From: Candidatus Omnitrophota bacterium
GTDB taxonomy: Bacteria > Omnitrophota > Gorgyraeia > 2-01-FULL-45-10
Length of the DNA: 64,000 bases
Assembly (NCBI GenBank): GCA_041650805.1
Contig: JBAZKM010000004.1
Coordinates: 41,636 to 105,635 of the forward strand
Reading direction: 5' to 3'
In this document: piece by piece, positions 18,493-47,666 of the stretch
Layout: each line of letters opens with the position of its first letter
Numbering within the stretch: position 1 is the stretch's first letter
The notes under the pieces: model-generated
What the model saw: only the letters and a program-made list of their open reading frames with translations
Told to the model about the DNA's origin: nothing
Databases searched by the model: none
Translations under genes and position numbers: made by a program

Positions 18493-19128
18493 CTATGAGA
18501 TTCTCTTTTTTCTTCTTGCCATTGCCATTGCTGCGGCACCAATACCGAATAGCACCATAGTGGCCGGCTCCGGGACAACTCCGGATGGATTTCCATAAGC
18601 CCTATACGCAAAGTCAAGATTATCGTTATCCGAATATGTGCCATAATTAGTAATTAAGGCTTCATCCGGTATCGGGTTTATTGGGTTTCTATCCATCGCG
18701 CCCGTATAAGTATCTCCTGTTCTTACTTCGAAAGCAACCCAATAATTACCGGCCGGCAACGCCCAATTTACGCCGCTTACACCATACCAGCCTGTAGCTG
18801 CTCCAACTAAAAAGTTCTGGTCATATAATTGGCTATTGACGTCTGGGATGATCCCTGAATAAATTCCATCACCATAAATTGCCAGGGTCGCTGTCCCGCT
18901 CACTTGAAGGTGTCTCCATCTTTGGTCTGTAAAGTGAGCTTCGATGTTAGTGAGCGAATAAGGGTCAGACAATGTAAACCTGGCGGCGTATCCTAAGCCG
19001 TTTTCCATATAACCATAGACTGCCGCATCGGGAGGGGTCCCCGTATCAAATATTACTGCCCCATAAGCCTGGCTCGAAATTAACAACATGGTAGCAAGCA
19101 GCGTATTTAATATTATTTTTATTCTCAT
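18493..19128 (-). CDS. PEP-CTERM sorting-domain secreted protein
   Basis: Signal peptide MRIKIILNTLLATMLLISSQAYG. C-terminal VPEPATMVLFGIGAAAMAMARRKKRIS (PEP motif + TM + basic tail). RBS AAGGGGG upstream of the chosen ATG. Confidence 0.7.
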   Translation of the reverse strand: MRIKIILNTLLATMLLISSQAYGAVIFDTGTPPDAAVYGYMENGLGYAARFTLSDPYSLTNIEAHFTDQRWRHLQVSGTATLAIYGDGIYSGIIPDVNSQLYDQNFLVGAATGWYGVSGVNWALPAGNYWVAFEVRTGDTYTGAMDRNPINPIPDEALITNYGTYSDNDNLDFAYRAYGNPSGVVPEPATMVLFGIGAAAMAMARRKKRIS

Positions 19129-19396
19129 CCCTACCCCCTTTTTATGATTGTTTCGATACCGCCATAACTGCCTTATATCATACAATCTAAATACAATATC
19201 TATACAAGCAATAACCGTGCCGATATCAGATACCTTCGTAATTGTTTAAAATGAGATTGGAAAGATGATAGGTATGCCATACTATGACGAGTATGGTGTT
19301 TAAGCGGCTATACACGTGACTAAAATCAGGGCTTGTATAAAAAGCTCGATGGGTCCACCAGGCAGCAGGGCACATTTAAGGATTGTGCCAATTTAC

Positions 19397-19717
19397 TCAA
19401 ACTTTTCGAGGGGACAGGTCTGGGATGCCATCCGGAACCGGTCTGGGATTGGTACGAGAACCGTCCCCGAAAACCGTGGATAAGTATATTCGGCCATCTG
19501 ACAAATGCCCAGTGTCTAATACACTAACGATATTGGCGTGTTCAGCGGCCTTGAGAATTTGTGCTTCATAAAAGAAATTTTTCTGATTAACAATTTTATC
19601 TTTGGGAATAAACTTAACCGCACATTCTGTATTTAATCCAGTGTCTATAGCCAACCAAACCTCTCCAAAATGACCAGAACCCAATTTTTCCTTTAATTCA
19701 AATTTATCTAGCGTCAT
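19397..19717 (-). pseudogene. truncated Ser/Thr protein kinase (N-lobe only)
   Basis: LGSGHFGEVW (Gly loop), AVKFI (beta3 Lys), EAQILK (alphaC Glu), HANIV. Kinase similarity ends after about 90 aa, where the GC content jumps from about 30% to about 60%. The reading frame continues into unrelated sequence. Confidence 0.5.
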
Positions 19718-20171
19718 GAAACGTGCTCCATCCGACTAAAATTGCCTCTTGAATACATGTATCTATTTCAGCAAAGTCTTGGAAAACAGAATAGTCTAAA
19801 TCTGTTTTTAAAGATTGAGTCCTTCCTTTTAATCCCAAATCTTTTGCTATAGTGCAATTAACCTTTTTATAGACTTTAATTCCTTTAATTGCCGCTGCCA
19901 ATTGAATTATGGCCTCATTTTCTGTACGTATTACAAAGGGGCTACCTCTACTTGCCATACCCTCCGTTCCCTTTATCGCTATAGCATCTATTTTATTTTT
20001 TTCTAGAATATCTGTTATTTCTTGAGAAAACCATTTAAGTTCTTGAGGCCTTGTGTAATTCTTGGGAAAGAGTATTCGATTGTGTTGTAAGAGTTTTGGA
20101 GATTTTTTGCTACCATCCAATATAGCAAAACAATAATCTTTCGTGCTACATCTTATTCCCAAAATAATCAT
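19704..20171 (-). CDS. small RNase-H-like-fold protein (possibly DUF3010-like)
   Basis: MIILGIRCSTKDYCFAILDG N-terminus resembles RuvC/YqgF-type beta-strand-1. AT-rich codon usage. Overlaps the kinase start by 14 nt. Confidence 0.3.
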   Translation of the reverse strand: MIILGIRCSTKDYCFAILDGSKKSPKLLQHNRILFPKNYTRPQELKWFSQEITDILEKNKIDAIAIKGTEGMASRGSPFVIRTENEAIIQLAAAIKGIKVYKKVNCTIAKDLGLKGRTQSLKTDLDYSVFQDFAEIDTCIQEAILVGWSTFHDAR

Positions 20172-20283
20172 TATATTTAGCGCCTTATTGTGAAACTGCC
20201 ATTTTGATCACATATTTTTCGTACGGGCAAACATACTATAAAATATAAGGTACTAGTGTTTGTTTCGTAATAATAGATTATAA

Positions 20284-23151
20284 CTAGTAAATGATTTTAT
20301 AATTAAATTTCAGCCAATCACTAATTTCTTTATTAATAAGTGGCATAACATGATCGATTAATCCCAGCTTTCTTTTTAGCAAGTCGCTGAACTTTTTTGT
20401 TACGCTTCGCGGATCTCTATCTGTTGTTACAACTTTTAAAATAATTTCTAAATATTTTCGTCTCATACCAGGGTCTGGTAGTTCGAGTATTATCAGTTTC
20501 ATAAAATCGGTTAAAACATTAAGTTGTGAATCTAGGGTGGTTTCTTTGGATTGCAGTATGTCAATAAATGCGTTAAAATCATTGGACGCTTGAAAACTAT
20601 TTTTTTCTGCACAGTATAATAGCATCTGGGCTGAGATTGAAAGATAATAATACTTTAGGCCTGCTAATTTAATTACCGCATCATAATATTCAGATTCACT
20701 CAGTAGCTTTTTTTGTACAAGCATAGTTAGAAAATTTTGTATGCTAAAGCTGTCTATTTTATAATCATTAAATAATAATTCTTTGAATAAAAGATCATCA
20801 CAAAATAACGGCAGTCTCTTCTCTTTGCATGTTTGTATAGAATAAATGTAGGGTCTCCCCAAAAGCTGTTCTTTAGTTTCTAGGTCTTTTTCTAATAGCT
20901 TATCTAGGCCAATTATATTAAAAGTATTTGCTGCAGCATCTTTGATTTTTTGTAGAAAGTCTATTTTATTTTTGCTACCTTCTGCAGAAAAATTTTGCCT
21001 ATAGGCTTTCCCCTCATGATAAAAGACCGACATTCCTTCACTATCCCCAAATCCTGTTTCATCGGCTATGCTCATATCTATTTCATCTATTGTCGCTCTG
21101 GTGACATAAACCTTATCAAAGTATTTTGTCGGCAATGTTAACATGTCTAAATACGCTAAAGTAAATAAAGAGAGCGGATCCAATAACACCTCTTTAGATT
21201 TATTAATTAATTCCTGTTCTTTTATTTGTTCTACGGCGCTTCCAGAGGCACAAAATAATCTATTGCCCATTGCAATTAAACCAGCCCAGGCAGTAAATAA
21301 ACTAATATTCATAAATTTAGACAATGCGCCTATTGTTAACTTTTTAGATAAATACATTTGGGTTATCTGTGATGCGTATTCCGATTTCCTCTTTACCATT
21401 TCTAGTACTTTTTCAGGATTCGCTTCAATTTTCTGTATTGTTTTATTGCTGGGGAAATATGTATTAAAATTGTTTAGTATACTTTGGAATAATTTTACAT
21501 ATTTACTTTTTATTCCCAAAATTTCAACTACCTCATCTCGCCCGCCTTCTATCTTAATCGTTATTTTATCGCCAATTTTTTTTCCATAAATCGCTTTGCC
21601 TAAATTTGATTCTTTATAGATTTCTGCCCTAACTAATGATGCCCCAGGATCATCTAATAATAAAAACTCGCTTTCTTGACCATCTTTTCTTAATCTTATA
21701 TAAAAATCTTCTTTAACAAATTCTGATTCTAAAATAAGATCGCCTGTTTTCTTGCCTTTTTTGAGAAATAAAAATAAGTATAAAAGCTGTGTCTCAGCAT
21801 CGCTATCAGCAAGGGCTACTACCTTATACGCTTGCTTAATTGCTTCTTCTGTATAATTAGTCCGTGCCAAGAATTTTGTTAGTAAAAGAAGGGTGTCTTT
21901 ATCATTAATACGGTTTTTGATCTCTAAGAGTGATTTTATCTGATGTTCTTTATCGCTCCCCCCGATGTCGTTGACCATTGCTGTGTAATTAATCTTATGC
22001 CTGTAATTTTGTGGTTCTATTTTTACCAATCTTAAATATAGATCCCTAGCTTTATCTAATGAGCCTAATTGTTGGTAAATCGCTGCTTGTAATTCTAACA
22101 CGAATGGGATATCGCCTTGTTTAGCTATTAGATTTTTACATACTTCTAAACATTTTTGTATGTTTTCCGCTCTGTTTTCTTTTGATTCGTATAGACATAT
22201 TAAATAATCTTTTATAAAATCGTCAAATAAAGATTCTGAAACTATAACTTCATATAGCGGTATTGCAGCATCATATGAGCCGATCTTTTTATAATGTTTG
22301 GCCAAATGTATTATTGCAATATTTTTTTCTGGTCCTGTAGCAGTTTTCATCACTTCCGTTATTAGTGATTTAAAAGCCTCTGTTTCTCCTTTAGCCCTTT
22401 TTATCTCTGCATCTAATAGTAGTATTTTTGGGTCTTTACCAAATTTGCTATATAGTTGCTTTAAAATACTGCTTGCTTCATCATAATCTTTTTTTGATAC
22501 GTAGGTTTCTGCTAATAACAAATTGGGTACAATATTTAAACTGAGAAGCTCTTCTTTATAATATTGTTTAATTGCAGCAATTGCTTCCTCAGCTCTCGGC
22601 TCTGGTTGATCTACATACGATGATACTAGGGTTGGCATTATGTCATCTTTACTAGCGCCCCCATCTAAAGCTTTCTTAAAATCTACTATTGCTTCATCTT
22701 GGTTTTTAGTTAATACATTTATTTTTGCTTTATTTGCATATGCAAGAGGGTTTTTAGGATCAATTTCCAATACGGCATTTATGTCGTTAATAGCAAGATC
22801 AAACTTATCTAATATGGCTCTAACGCTAGATCTGTTTATGTAGGCATCTTCTAGTAGGGTCTTTTTATCAGTTGTTTTTAACAAATTGATGGCTTGTGTT
22901 AATAATCGTTCCGATTCTTCTAAGTCTTTTATATTTTCTGAGGATAGACCAAAGCGCCAAGCTCGGCCTTTCATAATAAATTGCAGTAAATGCGAGCCAT
23001 ATGTTAAATAAATTTCTGGTATGTCCTTCGCCGTCTCTAACGCTTTCTGGAAATATTCCTTTGCTTTTACAATTTCGTCTTTTTTTGCATAGGCAAGAGC
23101 AATATTTAGCAAAGCGTTTTTATCTTTTTTAAATCTATCTTTAATTTCCAT
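20284..23151 (-). CDS. large TPR-repeat protein (955 aa) with uncharacterised C-terminal half, low-GC
   Basis: More than 10 TPR-like repeats in the N-terminal about 480 aa. The C-terminal half has a possible PIN-like segment (VLLDPLSLFTLAYLDMLTL...VYVTRATIDEI). GC about 30%. Confidence 0.55.
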   Translation of the reverse strand: MEIKDRFKKDKNALLNIALAYAKKDEIVKAKEYFQKALETAKDIPEIYLTYGSHLLQFIMKGRAWRFGLSSENIKDLEESERLLTQAINLLKTTDKKTLLEDAYINRSSVRAILDKFDLAINDINAVLEIDPKNPLAYANKAKINVLTKNQDEAIVDFKKALDGGASKDDIMPTLVSSYVDQPEPRAEEAIAAIKQYYKEELLSLNIVPNLLLAETYVSKKDYDEASSILKQLYSKFGKDPKILLLDAEIKRAKGETEAFKSLITEVMKTATGPEKNIAIIHLAKHYKKIGSYDAAIPLYEVIVSESLFDDFIKDYLICLYESKENRAENIQKCLEVCKNLIAKQGDIPFVLELQAAIYQQLGSLDKARDLYLRLVKIEPQNYRHKINYTAMVNDIGGSDKEHQIKSLLEIKNRINDKDTLLLLTKFLARTNYTEEAIKQAYKVVALADSDAETQLLYLFLFLKKGKKTGDLILESEFVKEDFYIRLRKDGQESEFLLLDDPGASLVRAEIYKESNLGKAIYGKKIGDKITIKIEGGRDEVVEILGIKSKYVKLFQSILNNFNTYFPSNKTIQKIEANPEKVLEMVKRKSEYASQITQMYLSKKLTIGALSKFMNISLFTAWAGLIAMGNRLFCASGSAVEQIKEQELINKSKEVLLDPLSLFTLAYLDMLTLPTKYFDKVYVTRATIDEIDMSIADETGFGDSEGMSVFYHEGKAYRQNFSAEGSKNKIDFLQKIKDAAANTFNIIGLDKLLEKDLETKEQLLGRPYIYSIQTCKEKRLPLFCDDLLFKELLFNDYKIDSFSIQNFLTMLVQKKLLSESEYYDAVIKLAGLKYYYLSISAQMLLYCAEKNSFQASNDFNAFIDILQSKETTLDSQLNVLTDFMKLIILELPDPGMRRKYLEIILKVVTTDRDPRSVTKKFSDLLKRKLGLIDHVMPLINKEISDWLKFNYKIIY

Positions 23152-23154
23152 TTT

Positions 23155-24147
23155 CTAACCCTCTTTACGATATAACGTCATCGCTTCTTCTGTCTTATCA
23201 GCAGCCATTAGTAATTCGAATTTTATATTAATTGCTTCGTTATCATTTGGATCCATTATTATAGCTGCATCTATATATGGTAGACCATCCAAAGGCTTGT
23301 CCTCAAATAAACATGCCAATGCTCTATTCTTACAAGCAATAAGTGAGGGTGGAGATATAAAATCATATGCAATTTTAAACATTTTCGACGCTTCTGCTTC
23401 ATCTCCTAATACTACATAACATACGCCAAGATTATTATAAACCTTGAATTTTGCAATCATTGGTACTTTAAGGTCTTTTTTAAAATCATTTATTAATTTT
23501 TCGTATATTATTTTTGCGCTTTCATGCTTGGCGTTATCCATTAAAACTTTGGCGTTATCGATTTCGGTTTTATACTTACACCCCTCTAGCGAATCGATGT
23601 CACTAACTTTGGCAGGTAAAATATTGGATCGAGATGTGCTTATAGATTGTTCATAAGTTAATTCTGTCGATGGTTTCTTTTCGAGCGTTTTTGCTATATT
23701 AGTTCGAACCTCTATCATCATTTTGTTAGTAGCTTCCATTGTTTGAGAAACAGAAAGAGGCACATGCTCTGCTTTGGGTAATTCTTCCGTAAAAATTTCT
23801 ATAAACCTAGCGCTTATTAACCCTATGTCTCGTTGCTTAAGATTAGTGCATTCCCCACATTTTTCGTTCAAACCTTTAGATATAGCGTCTTGCGCTATTT
23901 GAGGATTTATCTTGTAGTTTTGACCGATTACGGCGATAAGCTCTTTATTATTACTAAGCGTTTCCCATAAAATGATATCAATTCGTCCACTTTTTAATTC
24001 ATTAGAAACTCTTCGTGCAGATATAATAACTGCTTTTAGTATAGGCTCTTTTCTGAACAAAGAGAGGAGCTTTTCAACGGCCTTTTCTCCAAAAACCGTT
24101 GTTATTAACTCTGCTCCCTTTATACATATCTGGAATAATATTTCCAT
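23155..24147 (-). CDS. hypothetical protein with C-terminal TPR repeats, low-GC
   Basis: 330 aa. 4-nt gap to the downstream TPR gene (likely operon). No recognised N-terminal domain. Confidence 0.45.
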   Translation of the reverse strand: MEILFQICIKGAELITTVFGEKAVEKLLSLFRKEPILKAVIISARRVSNELKSGRIDIILWETLSNNKELIAVIGQNYKINPQIAQDAISKGLNEKCGECTNLKQRDIGLISARFIEIFTEELPKAEHVPLSVSQTMEATNKMMIEVRTNIAKTLEKKPSTELTYEQSISTSRSNILPAKVSDIDSLEGCKYKTEIDNAKVLMDNAKHESAKIIYEKLINDFKKDLKVPMIAKFKVYNNLGVCYVVLGDEAEASKMFKIAYDFISPPSLIACKNRALACLFEDKPLDGLPYIDAAIIMDPNDNEAINIKFELLMAADKTEEAMTLYRKEG

Positions 24148-24170
24148 ATAGCAGATTAATCCTATAATAA

Positions 24171-24203
24171 AAAAGCGTTAGAATTAATTCTAACGCCTTA
24201 ACA
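24171..24203 (-). terminator. rho-independent terminator downstream of tRNA-Asp
   Basis: Minus strand GGCGTTAGAAT-T-AATTCTAACGC hairpin followed by TTTTTTAT. Confidence 0.45.
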
Positions 24204-24445: not shown

Positions 24446-24522
24446 TGGCGGGGACGACGGGGATCGAACCCGCGACCTTCAGATCGACAATCTGACGTTC
24501 TAACCAGCTGAACTACGTCCCC
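24446..24522 (-). tRNA. tRNA-Asp (anticodon GTC)
   Basis: 77 nt. GGGGACGTAGTTCAGCTGGTTAGAACG...anticodon loop TTGTCGA...CGGGTTCGATCCCCGTCGTCCCCGCCA. Perfect 7-bp acceptor stem. Close to E. coli tRNA-Asp. Confidence 0.85.
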
Positions 24523-26561: not shown

Positions 26562-26637
26562 TGGTGGGCGGAACAGGGCTCGAACCTGTGACCTCTTGAA
26601 TGTAAGTCAAGCGTTCTACCAGCTGAACTATCCGCCC
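26562..26637 (-). tRNA. tRNA-Val (anticodon TAC)
   Basis: 76 nt. GGGCGGATAGTTCAGCTGGTAGAACGCTTGACTTACATTCAAGAGGTCACAGGTTCGAGCCCTGTTCCGCCCACCA. Confidence 0.85.
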
Positions 26638-26645
26638 GAAAAGGG

Positions 26646-27224
26646 TTATTTATGGTCCGGCCGCGAGCCGGGCTTCATTACGGGGATGCCCTTCCTGCAC
26701 ATAGGGCATGCCTTTTCGTCAAACGTCTCGACGCGTATCTTAGCAAGCGCCTCGAACCTGACGCCGAGATCCGCGCCGTTATCGCTCCTATCGATGATGG
26801 CGCCCGCGCCTGCTATCTTACCGCCGGAGCCCTTCACGACCTCCATGACCTCTCTGGTCGAGCCGCCGGTCGTCACCACGTCCTCTACTACCAGCGCACG
26901 CTCCCCCGGATTGACTGAAAACCCCCTGCGGAGGACCATCGCTTTGTCCTGCCTCTCGGCGAATATGCCGCGCACGCCTAGCGCGCGGGCGACTTCATAC
27001 CCCAGGGTGATTCCGCCGAGGGCGGGGCCGACCACAAGATCGACCTTATCTTTGGAAAACCTGGCCGCAAGTTCCTTCGCGAGCCTTTCGGCGACCTCCG
27101 GATGCTGCAGTATGAGGGCACACTGGAGATACTTCCCGCTGTGGAGCCCGCTCGAAAGACGGAAGTGTCCCTCCAGGAGGGCACCATACTTATCGAACAG
27201 CTTTAAAACGTCCTTTTCGGTCAT
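26646..27224 (-). CDS. pyrE: orotate phosphoribosyltransferase
   Basis: VVGPALGGITLG...VVEDVVTTGGS PRTase motifs. Confidence 0.85.
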   Translation of the reverse strand: MTEKDVLKLFDKYGALLEGHFRLSSGLHSGKYLQCALILQHPEVAERLAKELAARFSKDKVDLVVGPALGGITLGYEVARALGVRGIFAERQDKAMVLRRGFSVNPGERALVVEDVVTTGGSTREVMEVVKGSGGKIAGAGAIIDRSDNGADLGVRFEALAKIRVETFDEKACPMCRKGIPVMKPGSRPDHK

Positions 27225-27934
27225 ATCGTCATCTCTTCTATGATCTCTTTTGCCGCCCGGACAGGGTCGGCCGCCTCGGTGATCGGCCGGCCCACGACGA
27301 TGAAGTTCGCGCCGTTCCTTACCGCTTCCGCCGGGGTCGCTATCCTCTTCTGGTCGTTCTTTGCCGCCCAGGCGGGCCTGACGCCGGGCGTCACTATGAT
27401 AAAACCCTCTCCCGCGTTCTCCCTTATGAGTTTGGCTTCGGACGGAGAGGCGACGACACCGTCGGCCCCCGCATCTTTGGCGATCAACGCAAGCCGGACG
27501 ACTTCTTTCTGTATGGTATCATGTATGCCTACCTTCTTCAACCCATTTTCATCCATGCTCGTAAGGATCGTGACGGCAAGGACCCTCGGCCTCTCTATGC
27601 CGAGGCGCTGGGCCTCGAGCTTCACCGCGCCGCATGCCTCTTTCATCATGTCGTAGCCGCCCAGGGCATGCACATTTAAGATGAATACACCGAGCCGGGT
27701 CACAGACGCGGCGGCCCTGGCGACGGTATTCGGTATATCATGGAATTTCAGGTCGAGGAATATGTCCCGCTCCCGCTCCTTTATCGCCTCCAATATGCCC
27801 GGCCCGCATGACGAGAAGAGCTCAAGACCCACCTTGAACACCCTCACATCGTTCCTGAGCTTGTCTACCAGCGCAAGCGCCTTCTTTTCGCTGTCGACAT
27901 CGAGCGCAACTATAAGCCTATCGTTCGCCTTCAT
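27221..27934 (-). CDS. pyrF: orotidine 5'-phosphate decarboxylase
   Basis: LIVALDV...FLDLKFHDIPNTV signature. Confidence 0.85.
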   Translation of the reverse strand: MKANDRLIVALDVDSEKKALALVDKLRNDVRVFKVGLELFSSCGPGILEAIKERERDIFLDLKFHDIPNTVARAAASVTRLGVFILNVHALGGYDMMKEACGAVKLEAQRLGIERPRVLAVTILTSMDENGLKKVGIHDTIQKEVVRLALIAKDAGADGVVASPSEAKLIRENAGEGFIIVTPGVRPAWAAKNDQKRIATPAEAVRNGANFIVVGRPITEAADPVRAAKEIIEEMTI

Positions 27935-28842
27935 CCGGTCCTCAGCTTTCCGACAATGCCTTTTACATTCTCTATCCCGTGTTCTTTCATGTACTCTTCG
28001 ATACCTCTCGCTGTGGCTGCCGCTGCGCCCGGATCCACAAAATTGGCGGTACCCACCTGGATGGCCGCTGCGCCCGCGAGCATGAACTCGAGCGCATCTT
28101 TATGGTCCATGATCCCGCCCATCCCTATTACGGGGATGCGGACCTTATTATAAACGGTCCAGACCATGCGAAGCGCGAGCGGCTTTATCGCCGGGCCGCT
28201 CAAACCGCCCGTGACATTTCCCAGCACCGGTCTTTGTGCCTCTATATCAACGGCCATTCCCAGAAACGTGTTCACGAGGGAGACCGCGTCCGCGCCCGCT
28301 TCCTCGGCGGCCTTCGCTATCCTGGAGATATCGGTCACGTTGGGGGATAGTTTTGCTATGACGGTAAGGCCTGTCGCGCGCCGGACCGCCTTGACCGTCT
28401 CGTACGTACCTTTCTCGTCCTGGGCTATCAGACGGTCCTTACCGCCGTACCGTATATTCGGGCAGGAGAGGTTCAGTTCGAGCGCTGCGGCTTTAGTGCC
28501 GACGGCCTTTGCCAGCTCCTTGAACTCGTCTTCATCATCCCCCGCGATACTTGCTATCACCGGGGTCCCGAACTTTTTAAGGGACGGGAGCGTCTTCTTA
28601 AGGAATATATCTACACCTTTATTCTCGAGCCCGATCGAATTTAGCATACCGGAAGGCGTCTCTATGACACGGGGCGGCGGGTTGCCTATCCTGGGGCGCA
28701 GGGTGACCGTCTTGGCCACGATAGCGCCCAACGACCGGATGTCGGTCAGTTCTCCGTACCCGTCCCCGAACGTCCCCGACGCCGCCATGACGGGGTTCTT
28801 CAGTTTCAGCTTTCCTATCTTTACGCTCAGATCCGGCTTCAC
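27931..28842 (-). CDS. pyrD: dihydroorotate dehydrogenase, class 1B catalytic subunit
   Basis: NPVMAASGTFG...SIGLENKG...GGI motifs. Confidence 0.85.
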   Translation of the reverse strand: MKPDLSVKIGKLKLKNPVMAASGTFGDGYGELTDIRSLGAIVAKTVTLRPRIGNPPPRVIETPSGMLNSIGLENKGVDIFLKKTLPSLKKFGTPVIASIAGDDEDEFKELAKAVGTKAAALELNLSCPNIRYGGKDRLIAQDEKGTYETVKAVRRATGLTVIAKLSPNVTDISRIAKAAEEAGADAVSLVNTFLGMAVDIEAQRPVLGNVTGGLSGPAIKPLALRMVWTVYNKVRIPVIGMGGIMDHKDALEFMLAGAAAIQVGTANFVDPGAAAATARGIEEYMKEHGIENVKGIVGKLRTG

Positions 28843-29687
28843 CAGATTATCTCCTTTGCGTTAAATACCGGCCCGTCCTTACAGACCATCTTGTATTCGT
28901 ATTGGGTATTGGGTATAGGGTATCGGGTATCGGGTTTGGTAAATTGCGATCTGACTTTTACCGGACAGCCGAGGCAGACTCCCACGCCGCAGGCCATCTT
29001 CTCTTCGAGCGAGACCTGGCAATCGGCGTTATGCGCCGCGGCGATCTTAGCTACCGCTTTCAACATTGCGTTAGGACCGCAAGCGTATACGGTCCATGGT
29101 CCATGGTCGACGGTCGACAGTAAAGACCCTAAGATTTCAGTGATGAATCCTTTGCACCCTTCGCTCCCGTCTTCCGTTGAAACTAATGTTTCTATGCCAA
29201 GTTCTTTAAACTCTTTTTTGCAAATTAACTGTTTTTTTGTTTTTGCGCCTATTAAGGCGTATATTTTTTTACCGTGGGCCGTGGACTGTGGACTGTGGAC
29301 TAATTTTTCTGCCAGCGCAACGAGCGGCGCGACCCCCATGCCGCCGGCGACGAGTACAACTGTGGACCGTGGACTGTGGACTGTGGACTTAATGTCGAAC
29401 CCTTTCCCCAGCGGCCCGATCACGTCGAGAAGCTCTCCCGGTTTACGCCTAGCCAATATCTCCGTGCCCTTGCCCACGACCTCATATAATATCTCGATCC
29501 CGCCCCTTATTATCCTGTGTACGCTGAAAGGCCTGCGAAGCAGCGGATCGACAGCGTCGGAAGGGCGCACCTCTATAAATTGGCCCGGTGCCGTCGCGCG
29601 CGCAAGATACGGCGCCCCGAGCCGCATCTTGTAGTACCGCGGCCCTGCCTTCCTGTTCTCCAGTATCTTCGCGCTAAGTTGTCTCAT
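28839..29687 (-). CDS. pyrK: dihydroorotate dehydrogenase electron-transfer subunit, carrying in-frame heptamer-repeat insertions
   Basis: FAD/NAD-binding ferredoxin-reductase fold and C-terminal Cys cluster (CGVGVCLGC). Contains the repeat-encoded peptides HSPRSTV, HSPQSTA, VDHGPWTV and PDTRYPIPNTQY. Confidence 0.8.
   Translation of the reverse strand: MRQLSAKILENRKAGPRYYKMRLGAPYLARATAPGQFIEVRPSDAVDPLLRRPFSVHRIIRGGIEILYEVVGKGTEILARRKPGELLDVIGPLGKGFDIKSTVHSPRSTVVLVAGGMGVAPLVALAEKLVHSPQSTAHGKKIYALIGAKTKKQLICKKEFKELGIETLVSTEDGSEGCKGFITEILGSLLSTVDHGPWTVYACGPNAMLKAVAKIAAAHNADCQVSLEEKMACGVGVCLGCPVKVRSQFTKPDTRYPIPNTQYEYKMVCKDGPVFNAKEIIW
28893..28938. repeat. heptamer tandem array (GTATNGG) x5 to x6, in-frame inside pyrK
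   Basis: gtattcg tattggg tattggg tataggg tatcggg tatcggg. On the pyrK strand this encodes KPDTRYPIPNTQYEYK. Confidence 0.7.
29274..29389. repeat. two heptamer arrays (GTGGACT/GTGGACC) inside pyrK (29274-29301 and 29360-29389), plus a related (GGTCCAT) array at 29091-29118
   Basis: Direct reading gives gtgggcc gtggact gtggact gtggact. Each array is a multiple of 21 nt in-frame, encoding 7-aa units (V)HSP(R/Q)ST(V/A). Confidence 0.7.
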
Positions 29688-29690: not shown

Positions 29691-30923
29691 TCAGAAAAAG
29701 CTCAGCTGCTTCTCGGGGTCTTCCTCGCCCTTCCTGAAGACACCCACCTTCCCGTATTCCCCGTCGTAACCGGGCATTATCTCCACTTCCCCTTTGCGCG
29801 TGTTCATGATCCCTTTCGCTATCTTCGCGGGGCATCTCTCTTTCAACTCTTCTTCGGGGGCATCGAGCAGTATCGCGAACTCGTTCCCGAAATTCTTTAT
29901 CATCTGGAAATACTCCTTCTCCACGGTCATCGAATCGGGGCTGAAGCCGAGCGCGTCGCCGATGATCTCGGCGAGCGGCACCATGCTCTTGAAAGGCGGG
30001 CTCGACTCCGACACGAAGCCCTCCGGCCTGTCGGCAAGGCCCTCGAGCCGGTGGAGGACGCCTATCGTTACCGGCTTGCCGCATACGGGACACTTATTAT
30101 TCACCCTCATCGCCTCTTTCGGCTCCAGGCGTGTCTTGCATACCCTGTGGCCGTCCCAGTGGTATTTACCCTCCTCCGGGAAGAACTCTATGGTGTAGAG
30201 AAATCTCGACCTGTCTTTCTTCTTCAATATATCTATGAGCTCCTTATACCCGAACCTCGTCTTAAAGACATTTGCCTCTCTCCCTATTTTGGAAGGCGAA
30301 TGGGAATCGGAATTCGAGGTGAGGCAGAACCTGTCAAGCTTTGACCATCTCCAGTTCATGGCCGGGTCGCTGGAGAGGCCCGTCTCTATCGAAAATACCT
30401 TGGGCGTCTCCGCCTCGAAGCACTCCTCGGGGGAGTCAAACCCGGAATTCGAGCCGAATATGCTGAAGTGCGGCGTCCACGCGTGGCTCGGCACGACGAA
30501 TATATCGGGATCTATGGCAGTGAGGAGGCGCACCATCCTGTCGCACTCCAGTGCCAGTATGGGCCGCCCGTCGCTCGCGAGGTCGCCGTATTCGCCTACG
30601 GCCCTGTTTATCTCTTCGACGGCATTGAAGCTGGGCGCGAATATTATATTATGGACCTTCCGGGTCCTGCCCGCCTTGAAGTATATATTGGACACCTCGG
30701 CCGTAAGGATGAAATATACGCCGTCATGAAGATAGATGCCGTACTCGGTCTCCTGGAGCTTGTTCTTCAGCTCCGAAAGCCACATGGGGTGGGTGAAGTC
30801 GCCGGTGCCGAGCATCGACATCCCTTTTATCTTAGCCCACCTGGCAAGCGATGCCAGCTCCATCTCCCTGGATGTGGCGCGCGAGTATTTCGAGTGTATG
30901 TGGAAGTCGGCTATGAACGGCAT
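29691..30923 (-). CDS. endonuclease Q-like PHP-domain protein (TIGR00375 family)
   Basis: ADFHIHSKYSRATS and LGTGDFTHPMW PHP motifs, HAWTPH, SNSDSHSPSKIGREANVF, GKYHWDGHRVC, and CPVCGKP zinc finger. All are co-linear with archaeal EndoQ blocks. Confidence 0.65.
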   Translation of the reverse strand: MPFIADFHIHSKYSRATSREMELASLARWAKIKGMSMLGTGDFTHPMWLSELKNKLQETEYGIYLHDGVYFILTAEVSNIYFKAGRTRKVHNIIFAPSFNAVEEINRAVGEYGDLASDGRPILALECDRMVRLLTAIDPDIFVVPSHAWTPHFSIFGSNSGFDSPEECFEAETPKVFSIETGLSSDPAMNWRWSKLDRFCLTSNSDSHSPSKIGREANVFKTRFGYKELIDILKKKDRSRFLYTIEFFPEEGKYHWDGHRVCKTRLEPKEAMRVNNKCPVCGKPVTIGVLHRLEGLADRPEGFVSESSPPFKSMVPLAEIIGDALGFSPDSMTVEKEYFQMIKNFGNEFAILLDAPEEELKERCPAKIAKGIMNTRKGEVEIMPGYDGEYGKVGVFRKGEEDPEKQLSFF

Positions 30924-30930: not shown

Positions 30931-32214
30931 TCATATCTTCCCGTCTTTCACGGCAGGCCGGCCGCCGGCAAAGACGTGCGTGACCTGTGACCTCAATCTC
31001 CAGCCGATGAAAGGAGAATTTTTCGATCTTGATTCTATCGAATCTCTGGCATAGACGTATTCCCCGGCGGGGTCGATCACTACCACATCTGCCGGGCTTC
31101 CCTTTTCCAGCGTCCCTGCCGTAAGGCCGAGAAGCTTCGCCGGGTTGAGCGACATCTTCTCGATAAGCCCCGGCCACGAGATGATGCCTTTATCCACAAG
31201 CTCCATCACAGAAATGCTGAGAGCGGTCTCAAGGCCGATTATGCCGAACGGCGCGAAGTCGAACTCGACGTCCTTCTCGCTATCCGTGTGAGGGGCATGG
31301 TCCGTCGCGATCACGTCGATCGTGCCGTCGCCCAGGCCTCTCTTCACCGCCTCGACATCGTCTCCGGTCCTTAAGGGAGGGTTCATCTTCGTATTGGTAT
31401 CATACGTGACGCAGCACCCGTCTGTCAGCGCAAAATAATGCGGGGCCGTCTCTGCGCTCACCTTCAGGCCCTCCTTCTTCGCCTTCCTTATAAGCTCTAC
31501 GGACTCCTTACAGCTGACGTGGGCTATATGCAGTGGGGACGATGCCCTGCCGGCCAGTTCGAGGTCCCTCTTCACCCTCTCGTATTCGGCCCTGCGCGGT
31601 ATCCCCTTAAGCCCCATCTTCGTAGATATGAAACCTTCGTTCACGACACCTTTGCCCGATATCTTCCTGTCTTCGCAGTGCACTATCACAAGGACCGAGT
31701 TCTTGCCGGCGTCCTTTAGCGCTTCCAGCATGAGGGCCCCGTCATCGACGGACGAGCCGTCGTCCGATATCGCAACTATCCCTTCTTTCTTCATGCCGCC
31801 TATATCGGCTAATTCCTTCCCCGCCCTCTTTAAGGTTATCGCGCCGACCATAACGACCCTTGCCATGGCGTCTCTCTTTATGGCAGCCGAGAGCTCCTTC
31901 ACCGCTTCAGGGCTGTCTATGGCCGGGTCGGTATTGGGCATGCATGCGACGGCCGTAAAACCGCCGCGCAGGGCTGCGCGGGTCCCCGTCAGGATCGTCT
32001 CCTCGTCCTCCCTGCCGGGCTCCCTCAGGTGTACGTGCATGTCGACAAACCCGGGTGCTACTATCCTGCCGGAGGCGTCTATGACCTCGCCCCCGTTTAT
32101 TTTCAAACCCTTCCCGACGGCTTCGATCTTTCCGCCGGAGATGACTATATCAGAAACGGCGTCTATCTTATTCTTAGGGTCGATGACCCGGCCGCTCTTT
32201 ATCAGATATTTCAT
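30931..32214 (-). CDS. pyrC: dihydroorotase
   Basis: APGFVDMHVHLREPG metal-binding motif. Start set at [13 protein letters not shown]; the ORF track's upstream 56 codons are Arg-rich and overlap pyrB. Confidence 0.8.
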   Translation of the reverse strand: MKYLIKSGRVIDPKNKIDAVSDIVISGGKIEAVGKGLKINGGEVIDASGRIVAPGFVDMHVHLREPGREDEETILTGTRAALRGGFTAVACMPNTDPAIDSPEAVKELSAAIKRDAMARVVMVGAITLKRAGKELADIGGMKKEGIVAISDDGSSVDDGALMLEALKDAGKNSVLVIVHCEDRKISGKGVVNEGFISTKMGLKGIPRRAEYERVKRDLELAGRASSPLHIAHVSCKESVELIRKAKKEGLKVSAETAPHYFALTDGCCVTYDTNTKMNPPLRTGDDVEAVKRGLGDGTIDVIATDHAPHTDSEKDVEFDFAPFGIIGLETALSISVMELVDKGIISWPGLIEKMSLNPAKLLGLTAGTLEKGSPADVVVIDPAGEYVYARDSIESRSKNSPFIGWRLRSQVTHVFAGGRPAVKDGKI

Positions 32215-33167
32215 GATACCTCTTTTGCCGTAGCGACAAGGTAAAGGACCGCCATCCTCACCGCTATGCCGTTCGTGACCTGTTCCAGTATCACGGAATT
32301 GGCCCCGTCGGCCACCTCGCTCGACATCTCTACCCCGCGGTTTATGGGGCCGGGGTGCATGACGACGATATCCTTCTTGCACTTTTTGAGCCTCTCTACG
32401 GTGAGGCCGTACTGTTTGAAATATTCCAGCTTCGACGGGAAGGCGAGCGCTTCATCCCGCTCGAACTGCATCCTGAGGACGTTGACGGCATCGGCGCATT
32501 TGAGCGCGTCGTCTATATCGTGCGTCACCCGCACCCCCATCTTATCTATGCCGGGCGGTATGAGCATCTCCGGGGCGCATACGGTGACGCGGGCGCCCAG
32601 TTTCGTCAGACCCCATATATTTGACCTGGCGACCCGGGAGTGGGAGATGTCGCCCACTATGCTCACGTTGAGGCCTTCGATCCTGCCCAGTTTCGACTTC
32701 AGGGTGAACATATCGAGAAGCGCCTGGGTAGGATGCTCGTGCCATCCGTCGCCGGCGTTCACCACGCTCGACTTCACCGCGCGCGAGAGGATGTTGGGGG
32801 CGCCGGAACAGTTATGCCTGACCACTATTATATCTATCCTTAGGGCTTCTATATTCCTGCCCGTGTCTATGAGCGTCTCGCCCTTCCTCACGCTCGACGA
32901 TTCCACCTCTATATTTATGACGTCGGCCGAAAGCCGCTTTGCGGCGAGCTCGAAACTTGTGCGCGTCCTAGTCGACGGTTCATAGAAGAGGTTGACGACG
33001 GTCTTGCCGCGTAGCGCCGGCACCTTCTTTATCTGGCGCGTCGTGACCTCCTTGAAGCTCCCGGCGGTATAAAGTATATGCTCTATCTCTTCCCTCGACA
33101 GCTCTTCGAGCCCCAGGAGGTCCTTCCTTGTCCAGACCATCTTTTTTTCCATTATACCTTCTCGCAT
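32211..33167 (-). CDS. pyrB: aspartate carbamoyltransferase catalytic subunit
   Basis: STRTR, HPTQ, HPGP motifs. Confidence 0.85.
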
Positions 33168-33697
33168 ACGACCGCCTCATCGATCCCGTCCGTCTCCGAC
33201 AACCGGACCTCGACGACTTCTTTGGGCGACGTGGGCACGTTCTTGCCCACATAGTCCGCCCGTATCGGGAGCTCCCGGTGGCCCCTGTCGATCAGGACGG
33301 CGAGCTGTATCTGCCCGGGCCTCCCGAAATCTATGAGGGCATCGAGCGCGCACCGGACCGTCCTGCCCGTATAGAGGACGTCGTCCACCAGTATCAGCCG
33401 CTTCCCTTCGATGTCGAACGGTATCTCCGTGGCATGCACGACCGGCTGCTCCGAGGCCTGGGTGAGGTCATCCCTGTAGAGCGTGATGTCGAGGGCCCCT
33501 ACCGGGGGCCTCTTCCCGGTGATCGCCTTTATGCTATCGGCAAGCCGTACGGCAAGGTGCGCCCCGCGGTTCTTGATCCCCACTATGGCGACATCTTCCA
33601 GCGGCCTGGCCTTCTCCACTATCTCGTGGGCGACCCTTTCAAGCGTCTTCGCCATAGAACCCTTGTCCAGTATCTTCGACTTCTCTTTAAGCGTCAT
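33152..33697 (-). CDS. pyrR: bifunctional pyr operon regulator / uracil phosphoribosyltransferase
   Basis: 181 aa PRTase-fold. [18 protein letters not shown]. Confidence 0.85.
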
Positions 33698-33699
33698 CT

Positions 33700-33810
33700 A
33701 TCCACCCCATAGGCATAAAAAAACCCGCCTCTCTCTTCGACAGGTGGGTCATATATTTCCATCTTTTTGCTCCTTTCCCGGCCTCTCAGGACCGGATTTA
33801 AAAGGGCCTA
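33700..33810 (-). promoter_or_regulatory. putative PyrR-binding attenuator in the pyrR leader
   Basis: Minus-strand RNA contains AUCCGG-UCCUGAGAGGCC-GGGA, matching the PyrR binding-loop consensus (RUCCNGNGAGGYU). It is followed by a CCCACCU...AGGCGGG hairpin plus U7, about 20 nt before the pyrR ATG. Confidence 0.4.
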
Positions 33811-33895
33811 TTTCGCCTGAAAACAATATTATGCTACCATAACATACGGGCATTGTCAACTACTTTTTCCCTGCGCGCGGGCTCATGAAGGCATG

Positions 33896-38572: not shown

Positions 38573-38634
38573 GCTTTCAAACAATTTCAAATTACCAATG
38601 TCAAATTAATTGGATATTTGTAATTTGTCATTGG

Positions 38635-41109
<2,475 letters not shown>

Positions 41110-41133
41110 TTTTCTCCTCGTTATAGAACCGTT

Positions 41134-41205
41134 GGTCCATAGTCGATAGTCCATGGTCCATAGTAAAAACTTTGGCCGTCGACTGTGGACCGTGGACTGT
41201 TGACC
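41134..41205. repeat. heptamer-based palindromic REP-like element in the gyrB-gyrA intergenic region
   Basis: ggtccat agtcgat agtccat ggtccat ag ...loop... gtcgact gtggacc gtggact gttgacc (imperfect inverted arms). Confidence 0.5.
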
Positions 41206-41222
41206 CGTTCATTTTTCGTATA

Positions 41223-43748
<2,526 letters not shown>

Positions 43749-43756
43749 TTAAGATA

Positions 43757-44059
43757 CTACACATCCCCTATCCTGAACCTCACGTTCCTTATCTTCTTTT
43801 TCTTCAGCTTCACCGAGAGCTTTTTGAGTATATCTTTCTTCTTCAGCGTCAATTCGTACAGCCACCCCGAGTCGTCCACGTTCACCACGAGCTCCGCCCT
43901 TCGTATGGCGACGGGCCGCGTGTGGCAGGCGGCCTTCCTGCCGGCCGCCCGGCGCCATGCGGCCCTTATATCCTCCTCCGTGACCGCCTTATCTTTCTTC
44001 AGGCCGGCTATTATATTTTCCAGTACGCCGTCCAGCGGCCCCTTAGGAGATCCGGCCAT
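43757..44059 (-). CDS. dciA: DUF721 / DciA-like protein (putative replicative helicase loader)
   Basis: 100-aa basic protein between dnaN and gyrB, the typical DUF721 position and size. Confidence 0.5.
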   Translation of the reverse strand: MAGSPKGPLDGVLENIIAGLKKDKAVTEEDIRAAWRRAAGRKAACHTRPVAIRRAELVVNVDDSGWLYELTLKKKDILKKLSVKLKKKKIRNVRFRIGDV

Positions 44060-44069
44060 GGCGCATCAC

Positions 44070-45167
44070 TTACGTAAGCTGCATCGGTAATACGACATAT
44101 ACATACTCGGTGCCTATCCTAACGACGCCCGGCTTCTCGGGATCGGCTACCTCAAAATGTATCTCGCCGACATCCGCGTTCTTCAGTATGTCCACGAGAT
44201 AGTCGGGGTTGAACCCTATGGAGATATCCTTCCCTTTATAATCGACGTCGAGCTCTACGCGCGCCTCCCCAAGATACGGCGCGCTCTTCAACAGGACCAT
44301 CTTGTCGCGCGCGAGGTCCAGCTTCACCGCCTTCGACTCCGGGTTGGTGAAGAGCGCCACCCTCTTCAGCGCCGATAAAAATTTATCCCTGGAGACGACT
44401 ATCTTCTCTTTCGTCTCTTTGGGCACAACCTGTTCATAATTGGGGAAATCACCTTCTATCAACCTTGATATGACGCGGGTGGACCCGACCTCGAAGAGCG
44501 TCTGGTTATCCCCGAAACTTATCTTCACTTCGCCTTCGTCCGTCAAGACCCTGAGCAACTCATTCACGGTCTTTGTGGGCACTATCATCTTTCTCTCCAG
44601 CGCCTTCGGGAACTGCATCTTCTCTTCCACCATCGCGAGCCGTCTCCCGTCGGTGGCAACGAGCCGTATATATGCCGGTTTTATCACGAAGAGTACGCCG
44701 TTCAGGACATACCTGGTCTCGTCGCTGCTTATGGCGAATACCGTCATGCCCAGCATCGCTTTTAACTTCTTCTGTTCCAGCATGATGAAGTCCTTGTTTT
44801 TAAACTCCGGGAGTTGCGGGAACTCGTCTTTGGGCAGCCCCATTATCTTAAAGGTGTTTTTGTCGCATTCAATGTGGATCATGTTGTTCTTTTTGACCGA
44901 CACGGATATATCTTCGTTTTCCGGCAGCTCTTTTATGATGTCGGCGAATTTCTTCGCGGGGATCGTTATGTTCCCTTCGATCGCGGGTTTTATCTGGATA
45001 GCCGATACTATACCTATATCGAAATCTGTTGCCGTAAATACGATATTTTCGCCGGCTGCTTCAACGAGTATGTTGGTCAATATAGGTGAGCTGCTCTTTG
45101 CGTTGATAGCGTTCTGGACGCTTTGTATGCCTTTAAGTAAGATATCTTTTTTTGTGTTGAATTTCAT
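44070..45167 (-). CDS. dnaN: DNA polymerase III beta sliding clamp
   Basis: 365 aa three-domain clamp. MKFNTKKDILLKGIQSVQNAI. Confidence 0.9.
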   Translation of the reverse strand: MKFNTKKDILLKGIQSVQNAINAKSSSPILTNILVEAAGENIVFTATDFDIGIVSAIQIKPAIEGNITIPAKKFADIIKELPENEDISVSVKKNNMIHIECDKNTFKIMGLPKDEFPQLPEFKNKDFIMLEQKKLKAMLGMTVFAISSDETRYVLNGVLFVIKPAYIRLVATDGRRLAMVEEKMQFPKALERKMIVPTKTVNELLRVLTDEGEVKISFGDNQTLFEVGSTRVISRLIEGDFPNYEQVVPKETKEKIVVSRDKFLSALKRVALFTNPESKAVKLDLARDKMVLLKSAPYLGEARVELDVDYKGKDISIGFNPDYLVDILKNADVGEIHFEVADPEKPGVVRIGTEYVYVVLPMQLT

Positions 45168-45334
45168 TATCTTTCGTCTCCTGTTAGTTCTACTTATCTT
45201 TTATAACAAATAGCAGCAGCACTTAGCAGTAGGGTCTGTTGATAAGTGAGTAAGTCATCAACCCCAATAGGAACAACGGATTGAAACCCGGGAGCATGAG
45301 CAATATTATAAATACTTATCAACATGATCAACAA

Positions 45335-46711: not shown

Positions 46712-46966
46712 AATATAGGACCTTACTTTGAGTTATCCACAACCCAATAACAACTTTTCAACACGAAAAAGGGGTTATCCACAAGTTACAAACAAGCATC
46801 GCAGCCGCGACGTTCAGTTATTATAGTAGATTATATAAAGTAGTGCAAGAGAAAAATGAGCCCGCCATTAAATGTATTGACTCAATTATTCTTTATGATA
46901 TAATTTAGCACACGCAATTTTGCTTTCGGGGGAAGACCGTCAGCTTAAAACAGGAAAGGGATGACC
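46712..46966. promoter_or_regulatory. oriC-like region with DnaA boxes
   Basis: Perfect TTATCCACA at 46733-46741 and 46775-46783, plus an AT-rich stretch at 46815-46860. Variant boxes TTATCAACA also occur in the dnaA-dnaN spacer (about 45215-45320). Confidence 0.55.
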
Positions 46967-47104
46967 ATGAAGTATACGCTAAGGGCGAAATCGAACCTCA
47001 GGAGAAAGAGAAAGCACGGGTTCAGGAAGAGGATGAAGGACCGCTGGGGCAGGGCCGTTCTGAAGAGGAGACGACAGAAAGGCCGGCACAAGCTCACCGT
47101 ATGA
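46967..47104 (+). CDS. rpmH: 50S ribosomal protein L34
   Basis: [45 protein letters not shown]. The ORF has no stop-free run long enough to appear in the ORF track. Confidence 0.85.
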
Positions 47105-47460
47105 TCTCCGACGGAGATTTTCCGAAAGAAGAACATCTTTTAAAGACAGGGGATTTCAGGAAGGTCTATAAGAACGGGTCGGCCCACAAGAGGGACCCCC
47201 TCTTTTTGTACCGCCTGCCGAACGCCGGGGAGACGATAAGGGTCGGTTTCTCGGTGAGCTCGCGCAGCATAAAACTGGCGACAAGACGGAACAGGATAAA
47301 GCGGCTTTTGCGCGAGGCATACCGGTTGAACAAGGCGAAGCTTAAAAAAGGGTTCGATATAGTCATAGTGGTGCGCAGGGATCCGTCCCCCGCATTGGCT
47401 TATAAAGATATAGAGAAGAAGTTCCTGGGCGTTGCCGGAGAGGCGGGTATATTGAAGTGA
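47101..47460 (+). CDS. rnpA: RNase P protein component
   Basis: ATGA overlap with rpmH. RNR motif region [23 protein letters not shown]. Confidence 0.85.
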
Positions 47461-47666
47461 AGAAGATAGCCATTTGCATGCTGAAGTTATATCGTAACTA
47501 TCTATCACCATTGAAGTTACAATGCTGCAGGTTTTACCCATCCTGTTCGGAATACGCCATCGGGGCCATAGAGAAACACGGCCTTTTATCCGGCGGCCTG
47601 AAGAGCATAAAGCGCATCCTGAGGTGCAACCCGTTCTCGCAAGGCGGGTACGATCCTGTCAAATAA
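47457..47666 (+). CDS. yidD: membrane protein insertion efficiency factor
   Basis: YRNYLSPL...[11 protein letters not shown] signature. Confidence 0.8.

Follow-up and report, generated by a model that had tools for sequence, protein, structure and literature searches.

Introduction

Known members of the endonuclease Q (EndoQ) family include those of Pyrococcus furiosus (Pfu) and of Bacillus pumilus and B. subtilis, of which the Bacillus enzymes are reported to nick DNA 5' of deoxyuridine (dU), deoxyinosine (dI) and apurinic/apyrimidinic (AP) sites (Shiraishi et al., 2017, via PMC5961232 and PMC6202378). The Pfu enzyme contains a two-metal PHP site formed by H8, H10, E76, H84, H139 and D193, plus H195, as well as a lesion pocket lined by H139, T142, E167, L168, G169, L170, N191 and D193 (Miyazono et al., 2018; PMC5961232); its residue W144 was once proposed to act as a wedge, and the EndoQ-DNA complex was found to lack side-chain wedging (summarised in PMC11354406). 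Archaeal EndoQ also has a C-terminal PCNA-interacting protein (PIP) box, which binds PCNA and stimulates cleavage, and beta-clamp motifs have been remarked on in bacterial homologues (Shiraishi et al., 2016; PMC4858679). Here we describe an endoQ gene in a stretch of 64,000 nucleotides (nt) from an uncultivated Candidatus Omnitrophota bacterium (contig JBAZKM010000004.1; hereafter 'the window', to which all coordinates refer unless a locus is named), where it lies within the operon for pyrimidine biosynthesis (pyr). Taken as a whole, the evidence is best explained, and in our view probably explained, by an EndoQ-type, clamp-tethered lesion nuclease that is made from a PyrR-attenuated pyr transcript.

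We found no publication that links EndoQ, or DNA repair more broadly, with a pyr operon, or Omnitrophota with EndoQ, and nothing relevant in print on TIGR00375; the operon context of endoQ appears to be undescribed.

An EndoQ family gene packed into the pyr operon

The open reading frame at 29691..30923 (minus strand, ATG start) encodes a protein of 410 amino acids (aa) with predicted PHP catalytic, zinc-binding and C-terminal helical domains. It matches the NCBIfam hypothetical equivalog TIGR00375 along the entire profile (positions 2-374 of 374, E 1.8e-55), and phmmer aligns its residues 5-395 with residues 5-382 of the Pfu EndoQ chain 5ZB8 (E 7e-53). The precomputed Pfam annotation on record for the protein is PF27218 (MJ0043_C), and a Pfam-A scan returned a sub-threshold PHP_C match alone. 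With full-length homology, a matching fold and all metal ligands kept, the reading frame does, as far as homology can establish it, belong to the EndoQ family proper, and within it to the bacterial/DPANN clade. It is also an ordinary and already annotated member: the identical protein from a Candidatus Omnitrophota metagenome-assembled genome is named 'endonuclease Q family protein' at NCBI, so that the identification of the protein is not new. The first-pass annotation of the window had likewise called this frame an EndoQ homologue, and the motifs that it quoted all occur in the translation, namely D6-F-H8-I-H10-S (DFHIHS), LGTGD, SHAWTPH, SNSDSHSP, EEGKYH, CPVCG and PLAEII. The gene order that it proposed, pyrR-pyrB-pyrC-endoQ-pyrK-pyrD-pyrF-pyrE, is exact.

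The genes of the operon, identified with NCBIfam and delimited by the gene calls on the source contig, all lie on the minus strand. The first is pyrR (33152..33697), for the bifunctional regulator and uracil phosphoribosyltransferase (NF003549, 247.8 bits versus a cutoff of 138), and it is followed by pyrB (32211..33152), for the 313-aa catalytic subunit of aspartate carbamoyltransferase (NF002032, 413.9 versus 263 bits), and pyrC (30931..32214), for a dihydroorotase of 427 aa (TIGR00857, 406 versus 279 bits). Downstream of endoQ are pyrK (28839..29687), encoding the electron-transfer subunit of dihydroorotate dehydrogenase (NF000799, E 9.4e-58, 195 bits and below the equivalog cutoff, with additional matches to Pfam NAD_binding_1 and DHODB_Fe-S_bind), pyrD (27931..28842), for the dihydroorotate dehydrogenase 1B catalytic subunit (NF005574, 390.6 versus 269 bits), pyrF (27221..27934), for orotidine monophosphate decarboxylase (NF001273, 288.5 versus 193 bits), and pyrE (26646..27224), for orotate phosphoribosyltransferase (TIGR01367, 230 versus 150 bits). 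A tRNA gene directly downstream of pyrE (26565..26637, minus strand; RF00005, 74 bits) likely marks the end of the transcription unit, and a tRNA gene occupies the same position in the related locus L004.

Between the pyrC stop codon and the endoQ ATG lie 7 nt, and 3 nt separate the endoQ stop codon from the pyrK ATG. Elsewhere in the operon neighbouring pyr genes share 1-4 nt, with the start of pyrB overlapping the end of pyrR and a 4-nt overlap between pyrC and pyrB. A promoter and terminator scan identified no terminator-like site at the pyrC-endoQ or endoQ-pyrK junction. The translational packing of endoQ between pyrC and pyrK argues that the gene is transcribed within the pyrR-to-pyrE unit, and its co-transcription with the pyr genes, presumably under PyrR control, is well supported.

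Active site and predicted structure

In the alignment to Pfu EndoQ all seven metal-ligand residues of the PHP site are kept (H8, H10, E76, H91, H147, D206 and H208); each of them occurs in 156-160 of the 160 family sequences compared, and none varies among 41 close homologues. The lesion pocket is nearly as well preserved, seven of its eight residues being identical to those of Pfu (H147, T150, E180, G182, L183, N204 and D206), and the position of Pfu W144 is occupied by H152. The predicted zinc ligands are H259, C262, C278 and C281. An AlphaFold2 model built on 41 homologues (predicted local distance difference test, pLDDT, 81; predicted template modelling score, pTM, 0.83) fits both 5ZB8 and the DNA complex 7K30, with Foldseek template modelling (TM) scores of 0.79-0.83 over approximately 400 columns. 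The next-best fold is a plain PHP phosphoesterase, with a TM score of only 0.33, and the weak structural matches include 3E0F, 2YB1 and RNase AM.

A clamp-type peptide at the C-terminus

Bacterial beta-clamp-binding pentapeptides are of the type QL[SD]LF. The window EndoQ ends in the pentapeptide QLSFF (residues 406-410, codons at 29694..29708 on the minus strand), which is of this beta-clamp-binding type. All of 120 close homologues, and the proteins of 67 of 82 loci, finish in a tail of the pattern Q..[LFMIV][FLMIY], and for many bacterial members the exact sequence is QLSLF. The tail of the window EndoQ most likely tethers the enzyme to the beta sliding clamp in the way that the archaeal PIP box tethers its enzyme to PCNA. 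That this peptide is conserved is a strong argument that the protein acts on DNA, probably while tethered to the clamp, and speaks against a small-molecule phosphoesterase.

Also significant is the observation that the type of tail follows the domain of the host. The tails of DPANN archaeal EndoQ sequences are PIP-box-like instead, for example QKSLDEFF or QKGLSSFF, and a comparison of seven loci (L023, L031, L049, L056, L071, L073 and L082) with the bacterial loci yields the pattern Q..L..FF for DPANN and QLxLF for bacteria, though the DPANN sequences are nested among bacterial ones. Tails that follow the domain in this manner offer a ready prediction of clamp-dependent repair in organisms that are unculturable.

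A PyrR-type leader upstream of the operon

Upstream of pyrR, the region 33715..33809 (minus strand) is predicted to encode a pyr leader RNA consisting of a PyrR-binding hairpin and an intrinsic terminator (RF00515). It is preceded by a sigma-70-type promoter-like site, TTGACA-17 nt-TAGCAT with a TG extension (33831..33859, minus strand), which matches the consensus at 10 of 12 positions and is, as a consensus match alone, the best site in the scanned region. The predicted hairpin (33769-33808) has the sequence CCCUUUUAAAU-CCGGUC-CUGAGA-GGCCGG-GAAAGG, with the characteristic UCCUGAGAGG loop, and the terminator, ACCCACCUGUCGAAGAGAGAGGCGGGU followed by a run of seven U residues, is present in the minimum-free-energy fold.

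The RF00515 match in the window leader spans model positions 1-115 with a score of 52.7 bits (gathering score 54; E 2.6e-5), and the element surfaced in E-value mode alone, the Rfam search of the window at the gathering threshold returning tRNAs only. This borderline match is backed by the relatives, which carry a matching element in the same position: RF00515 is found upstream of pyrR, once per locus, in L021, L008, L009 and L004 (53.7, 51.5, 50.7 and 43.5 bits, respectively). Furthermore, single-sequence folds gave the same two-tier hairpin in all 15 of the 15 Omnitrophota leaders for which sequence was at hand. In these hairpins the CCUUU/AAGG outer stem is invariant and the loop is GAGAG or GAGAA, and the inner stems vary yet still pair (for example CCGGUC/GGCCGG, UCAGC/GCUGA, GCUGGCU/AGUCAGC and CCAGCC/GGCUGG). 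Hairpins of terminator type, followed by U runs, can also be seen in the leaders. RNAalifold predicted no structure when given a simple MAFFT alignment of these leader sequences, because the alignment was out of register.

It had been suggested at first pass, from the position of endoQ in the operon, that PyrR attenuation couples its expression to the uridine monophosphate (UMP) pool. The conserved RF00515 hairpin, the terminator and the promoter-like site now lend that suggestion direct support; the coupling to the pool itself remains a reading of the gene order and the leader RNA.

Conservation of the arrangement in Omnitrophota

The window Pyr proteins were compared by tblastn with 83 fetched loci, 21 of Omnitrophota type and 62 from other phyla. 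The gene pyrC, usually as pyrR-pyrB-pyrC, is directly upstream of endoQ in 19 of the 21 Omnitrophota-type loci, over a range of EndoQ identities from 52 to 100%, which answers in the affirmative the question of synteny in relatives raised at first pass; for a 69%-identical EndoQ homologue, two independent contigs show exactly the gene order of the window. The two loci that lack pyrRBC, L014 and L019, still have carB within approximately 2 kb of endoQ. No pyr gene was detected in any of the 62 loci from other phyla, even at E 1e-3, with 35 of these loci having at least 3 kb on both sides. The 19 of 21 and 0 of 62 counts, together with the carB gene near endoQ in the exceptions, indicate that endoQ has long been linked to pyrimidine genes and that this is a trait of the phylum; judged by these loci, Omnitrophota inherited the pyr-endoQ arrangement from their ancestor and have conserved it, and it is not seen beyond that phylum.

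Two forms of the operon are found. In the compact form, endoQ is followed by pyrK-D-F-E (the window, L001/L002, L004-L006, L008, L009, L013 and L059), and in the expanded form of a sister clade (L007, L011, L015, L016, L021 and L076) by (flavodoxin)-SLOG cluster 4-(carA)-carB-(UPF0047)-Fpg/Nei glycosylase-(PEMT-like)-pyrK-D-F-E, where genes in brackets are optional and the SLOG cluster 4 gene regularly comes after endoQ. The window has the compact operon, without the carA and carB genes that follow endoQ in the sister clade, and tblastn detected neither carB nor Fpg, SLOG4 or UPF0047 anywhere in its 64 kb.

The expanded loci have several further features. A gene for an Fpg/Nei glycosylase (Fapy_DNA_glyco, H2TH and zf-FPG domains) lies between carB and pyrK in L007 (13486-14286) and L021 (15863-16663), and occurs also in L011, L015, L016, L019 and L076, as a second base-damage repair gene beside endoQ. 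A gene with a Mut7-C (PIN-like) RNase domain is located between pyrC and endoQ in L017 (3702-4148), L018 (9065-9511) and L076 (9549-9998). In L021 a tRNA gene (11715-11786) stands inside the operon, between endoQ/flavodoxin and SLOG4-carB, and the long form may therefore not be one mRNA.

A recent horizontal insertion of endoQ was considered and rejected, given a guanine-plus-cytosine (GC) content like that of the neighbouring genes and the phylum-wide synteny. L004, L005 and L006, the three closest of the genome matches listed (63-74% identity, with the same operon), bear the label 'uncultured Planctomycetia bacterium'; as they group with the window protein, which is labelled Omnitrophota, those labels are probably wrong.

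Proposed function and alternative explanations

In the explanation favoured here, one promoter would drive a pyrR-pyrB-pyrC-endoQ-pyrK-pyrD-pyrF-pyrE transcript whose leader contains a PyrR-binding hairpin and then an intrinsic terminator. On the analogy of Bacillus subtilis, PyrR loaded with UMP or uridine triphosphate (UTP) would bind the leader hairpin and favour termination, such that EndoQ would be made along with the pyrimidine enzymes when uridine nucleotides are scarce and would be turned down with all of them when these are plentiful; the direction and strength of PyrR control, and its response to nucleotides, would presumably be as in that organism. By homology, EndoQ would flip a deaminated or missing base (uracil, hypoxanthine or an AP site) into the pocket beside the two-metal centre and nick the DNA backbone immediately 5' of the lesion, the activity and substrate specificity of the window protein being presumably those of its characterised relatives, with dX listed for the family alongside dU, dI and AP sites.

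Observations on the protein, on the leader and on the gene order weigh against this explanation. The identity to the characterised archaeal Pfu EndoQ is just 34% (374 aligned residues), and the TIGR00375 match, though it covers the full profile, scores 188.9 bits, under the curated equivalog cutoff of 326.6, so that the window EndoQ falls outside the trusted set and is therefore classed at family level only, like NCBI's own naming. The eighth pocket residue, L168 in Pfu, is replaced by T181, which is the usual state of the clade (154 of 160 family sequences). The first-pass annotation had listed a CPxCG zinc finger: the CPVCG knuckle is retained, but C249, the first zinc ligand of Pfu, is replaced by H259, giving an H-C-C-C site rather than the C4 site (C249, C252, C268 and C271) of the archaeal enzyme, and His in this position is normal in the bacterial/DPANN clade (151 of 160 family sequences). 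Two pocket loops of the structural model (residues 181-188 and 193-200) have pLDDT values under 50, and the model is therefore no guide to the geometry of the pocket. In the leader, the RF00515 matches all lie just below the gathering score and the central antiterminator hairpin of the RF00515 model is deleted in the window alignment; constrained and truncated folds of the leader gave no convincing alternative antiterminator, and we therefore infer the switching step from the Bacillus subtilis paradigm.

With respect to gene order, the Omnitrophota pyr operons hold other, seemingly unrelated genes (flavodoxin, a PEMT-like methyltransferase, UPF0047, the Mut7-C RNase and tRNA, and, in the mixture of the expanded operons, SLOG cluster 4), and the synteny of gyrA-glmS-rsmI upstream is partly conserved too (L001, L004, L007, L015 and L076), so that the persistence of endoQ could be inheritance rather than selection. 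These observations, like the lack of any detected pyr linkage of endoQ in the other phyla, support neutral hitch-hiking, in which endoQ is a co-transcribed repair nuclease whose location has no regulatory meaning: an Omnitrophota ancestor would have gained or retained the gene at this place, and the order would have been inherited in a syntenic, origin-proximal region. Neutral hitch-hiking is the main rival of an adaptive reading of the arrangement and is compatible with all of the findings; we regard it as quite possible, if somewhat short of an even chance. It is countered by the adjacency of pyrC and endoQ, which outlasts the flanking synteny, being kept in L008, L009, L011, L013, L016, L018 and L021, where glmS and rsmI are no longer adjacent, and which survives large rearrangements downstream of endoQ. 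Further points on this side are the occurrence of a second base-damage repair gene, for Fpg/Nei, in the operon of the sister clade, and the retention of endoQ near carB in loci without pyrRBC.

The adaptive reading, that in Omnitrophota the repair of base damage has become part of the pyrimidine regulon and that one PyrR attenuator, sensing UMP/UTP, governs both synthesis and EndoQ (and, in the sister clade, Fpg/Nei), is a tentative one, and we consider it doubtful. If it were true, the cell's ability to deal with misincorporated or deaminated bases would follow its nucleotide pool, and nucleotide metabolism would be connected to DNA repair by a dedicated form of regulation that is, as far as we could find, undescribed; a selective advantage of matching uracil repair to the supply of pyrimidines may be supposed. 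Were the placement selected, it would provide a simple, testable case of nucleotide-pool sensing over DNA base repair, and were it not, a clean example of long-lived operon hitch-hiking.

A protein of the same fold could also have a different job, the clade recognising other lesions or structures, or serving as the nicking module of helicase-driven excision. This is suggested by the size of the nearest relatives, as 116 of the best 150 cluster representatives exceed 900 aa and those that were checked are EndoQ fused to UvrD/REP helicase domains, by the adjacent helicase genes of L060 and L064, and by the long branch to Pfu and the clade-specific T181 and H-C-C-C zinc site. Such a role is nonetheless unlikely for the window EndoQ: seven of eight pocket residues are as in Pfu, tblastn detected no UvrD-type helicase gene in the 64-kb window, and the specificity of the Bacillus pumilus EndoQ is reported to be that of the archaeal enzyme (PMC5961232; PMC6202378).

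The coupling to PyrR would be largely lost if endoQ and pyrKDFE were driven mainly by a promoter inside pyrC. A promoter-like sequence is indeed found there, CTGACA-18-TATGAT (10 of 12 consensus positions; 31399-31428, minus strand), approximately 480 nt upstream of endoQ. However, promoter-like matches in the region, as well as terminator-like ones, are at chance level (6 promoter-like sites found versus 4.4 expected), pyrC and endoQ are in near contact, and the single PyrR site found per locus is at the leader; such independent expression appears quite improbable. Finally, PHP domains do include nucleotide phosphoesterases, to which the weak structural matches and the metabolic operon context might point, but a non-DNA role on a nucleotide or a pyrimidine pathway intermediate is very unlikely given a full-length match to EndoQ over three domains, the zinc-binding one and the DNA-binding one at the C-terminus among them (TM 0.8 versus 0.33 for the plain PHP esterase), a conserved tail of the clamp-binding type and relatives that are fused to helicases.

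Distribution of the family, helicase fusions and inteins

An exhaustive search of the representatives of 50%-identity clusters returned 3766 clusters at E <= 1e-3, of which 993 were at E <= 1e-30, and a scan by sequence pattern, in which each GTDB species was represented by one genome and 599 of the 600 stretches listed were confirmed, found EndoQ relatives encoded in at least 599 species-level genomes. The bacterial hosts include Omnitrophota, WOR-3, many Patescibacteria, Nitrospirota/Thermodesulfovibrionia, Aminicenantes, Elusimicrobia, Bacillota and Chloroflexi, and the archaeal hosts include Micr-, Aenigm- and Nanoarchaeota. The description of EndoQ as uncommon in bacteria, which the first-pass annotation had adopted, does not agree with such numbers across many uncultivated phyla; it mirrors the literature of 2015-2018 and is outdated. 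The published view of an archaeal enzyme with few bacterial representatives is superseded by that of a family that is widespread in uncultivated phyla and often fused to UvrD. In a neighbour-joining tree, a crude one without support values and of use only in showing that the pyr-linked sequences are all of Omnitrophota type, the EndoQ sequences group largely by phylum and the bacterial clade is parted from Pfu by a long branch.

The dominant layout in the nearest 50%-identity clusters (P0125-P0270) is that of EndoQ N-terminal to a UvrD/REP helicase, in proteins of approximately 1000-1200 aa. Among the fetched loci, the UvrD helicase is fused to EndoQ in L067, L078, L079 and L081, and is encoded by a separate gene immediately downstream of endoQ in L060 and L064. 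These fusions are the probable source of the label 'DNA helicase UvrD' on the stand-alone homologue P0007. That the window gene might be the truncated remnant of a helicase fusion was considered and rejected, as more than 120 intact stand-alone homologues have conserved C-terminal tails. The sequences P0121 and P0127 contain inteins of the LAGLIDADG type (Intein_splicing and LAGLIDADG_3) within the PHP domain; the EndoQ papers compared here make no mention of inteins.

Surroundings of the operon in the window

The region 38600-51100 of the window is the chromosomal replication-origin region, with dnaA (45335-46711), dnaN (44070-45167), a DciA gene, gyrB and gyrA on the minus strand, and rnpA-yidD-yidC-parA-parB on the plus strand, facing the dnaA side; the GC skew changes sign at approximately 46-47 kb. 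Only about 12-20 kb separate the pyr-endoQ operon from dnaA, and the operon is directed away from that gene, which is the orientation expected for leading-strand genes.

On the other side of the operon is an island of low GC content (19000-24200; 0.32-0.33 versus 0.51-0.58 around it), which adjoins a tRNA gene (24449-24522, minus strand) and was probably acquired horizontally. It encodes a 955-aa PIN-TPR-GreABC protein (20284-23151, minus strand), a 330-aa open reading frame without a Pfam match (23155-24147, minus strand), a 155-aa open reading frame and a 106-aa protein-kinase fragment. PADLOC gave no defence-system match for EndoQ or for two of the island proteins. A giant gene (6413 aa on the source contig) begins on the plus strand at approximately 55621, shortly behind a pair of tRNA genes (55069-55242), and continues past the window's right end (beyond 64000), with matches to FHA and DUF7790 and a faint one to CheR.

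Comparison with known systems

The Mth212 enzyme (an ExoIII-type dU endonuclease) and endonuclease V share with EndoQ the direct nicking of DNA at uracil or hypoxanthine, by which a glycosylase is bypassed, in the manner of nucleotide-incision or alternative excision repair. Their folds are unrelated to that of EndoQ, and endonuclease V cuts the second bond 3' of the lesion. To our knowledge, neither Mth212 nor endonuclease V occurs inside a pyr operon.

Within the family, the window EndoQ and the Pyrococcus furiosus enzyme (PF1551; 5ZB8, 7K30-7K33) have three co-linear domains, the metal ligands, the CPxCG knuckle and a clamp-interaction motif at the extreme C-terminus in common. This motif is a PIP box in Pfu and the bacterial beta-clamp-type QLSFF in the window EndoQ, whose host, in contrast to P. 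furiosus, is a mesophilic-type uncultivated bacterium and whose gene lies within a biosynthetic operon. The EndoQ of Bacillus pumilus and B. subtilis is closer in kind, being a stand-alone bacterial protein of approximately 400 aa; we know of no pyr-operon context described for it. The EndoQ-UvrD/REP fusions resemble the window protein over their N-terminal 400 aa, with 46-52% identity, and show the hallmarks of its clade (T181, an H-C-C-C zinc site and tails of the QL.LF type), the difference being that the window EndoQ has no helicase domain.

As a regulatory unit, the locus is most readily compared with the pyr operon of Bacillus subtilis (RF00515), which also has pyrR first, a leader with a PyrR-binding hairpin and then a terminator, and the order pyrB-pyrC ... 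pyrK-pyrD-pyrF-pyrE. The window operon has one attenuator, compared with three in B. subtilis, and is without pyrP, carA/carB and the central antiterminator hairpin of RF00515. In the slot between pyrC and pyrK that is occupied by carA/carB (pyrAA/pyrAB) in B. subtilis, the window has endoQ, and a further difference is this embedding of a DNA repair gene, to which the sister clade adds an Fpg/Nei glycosylase.

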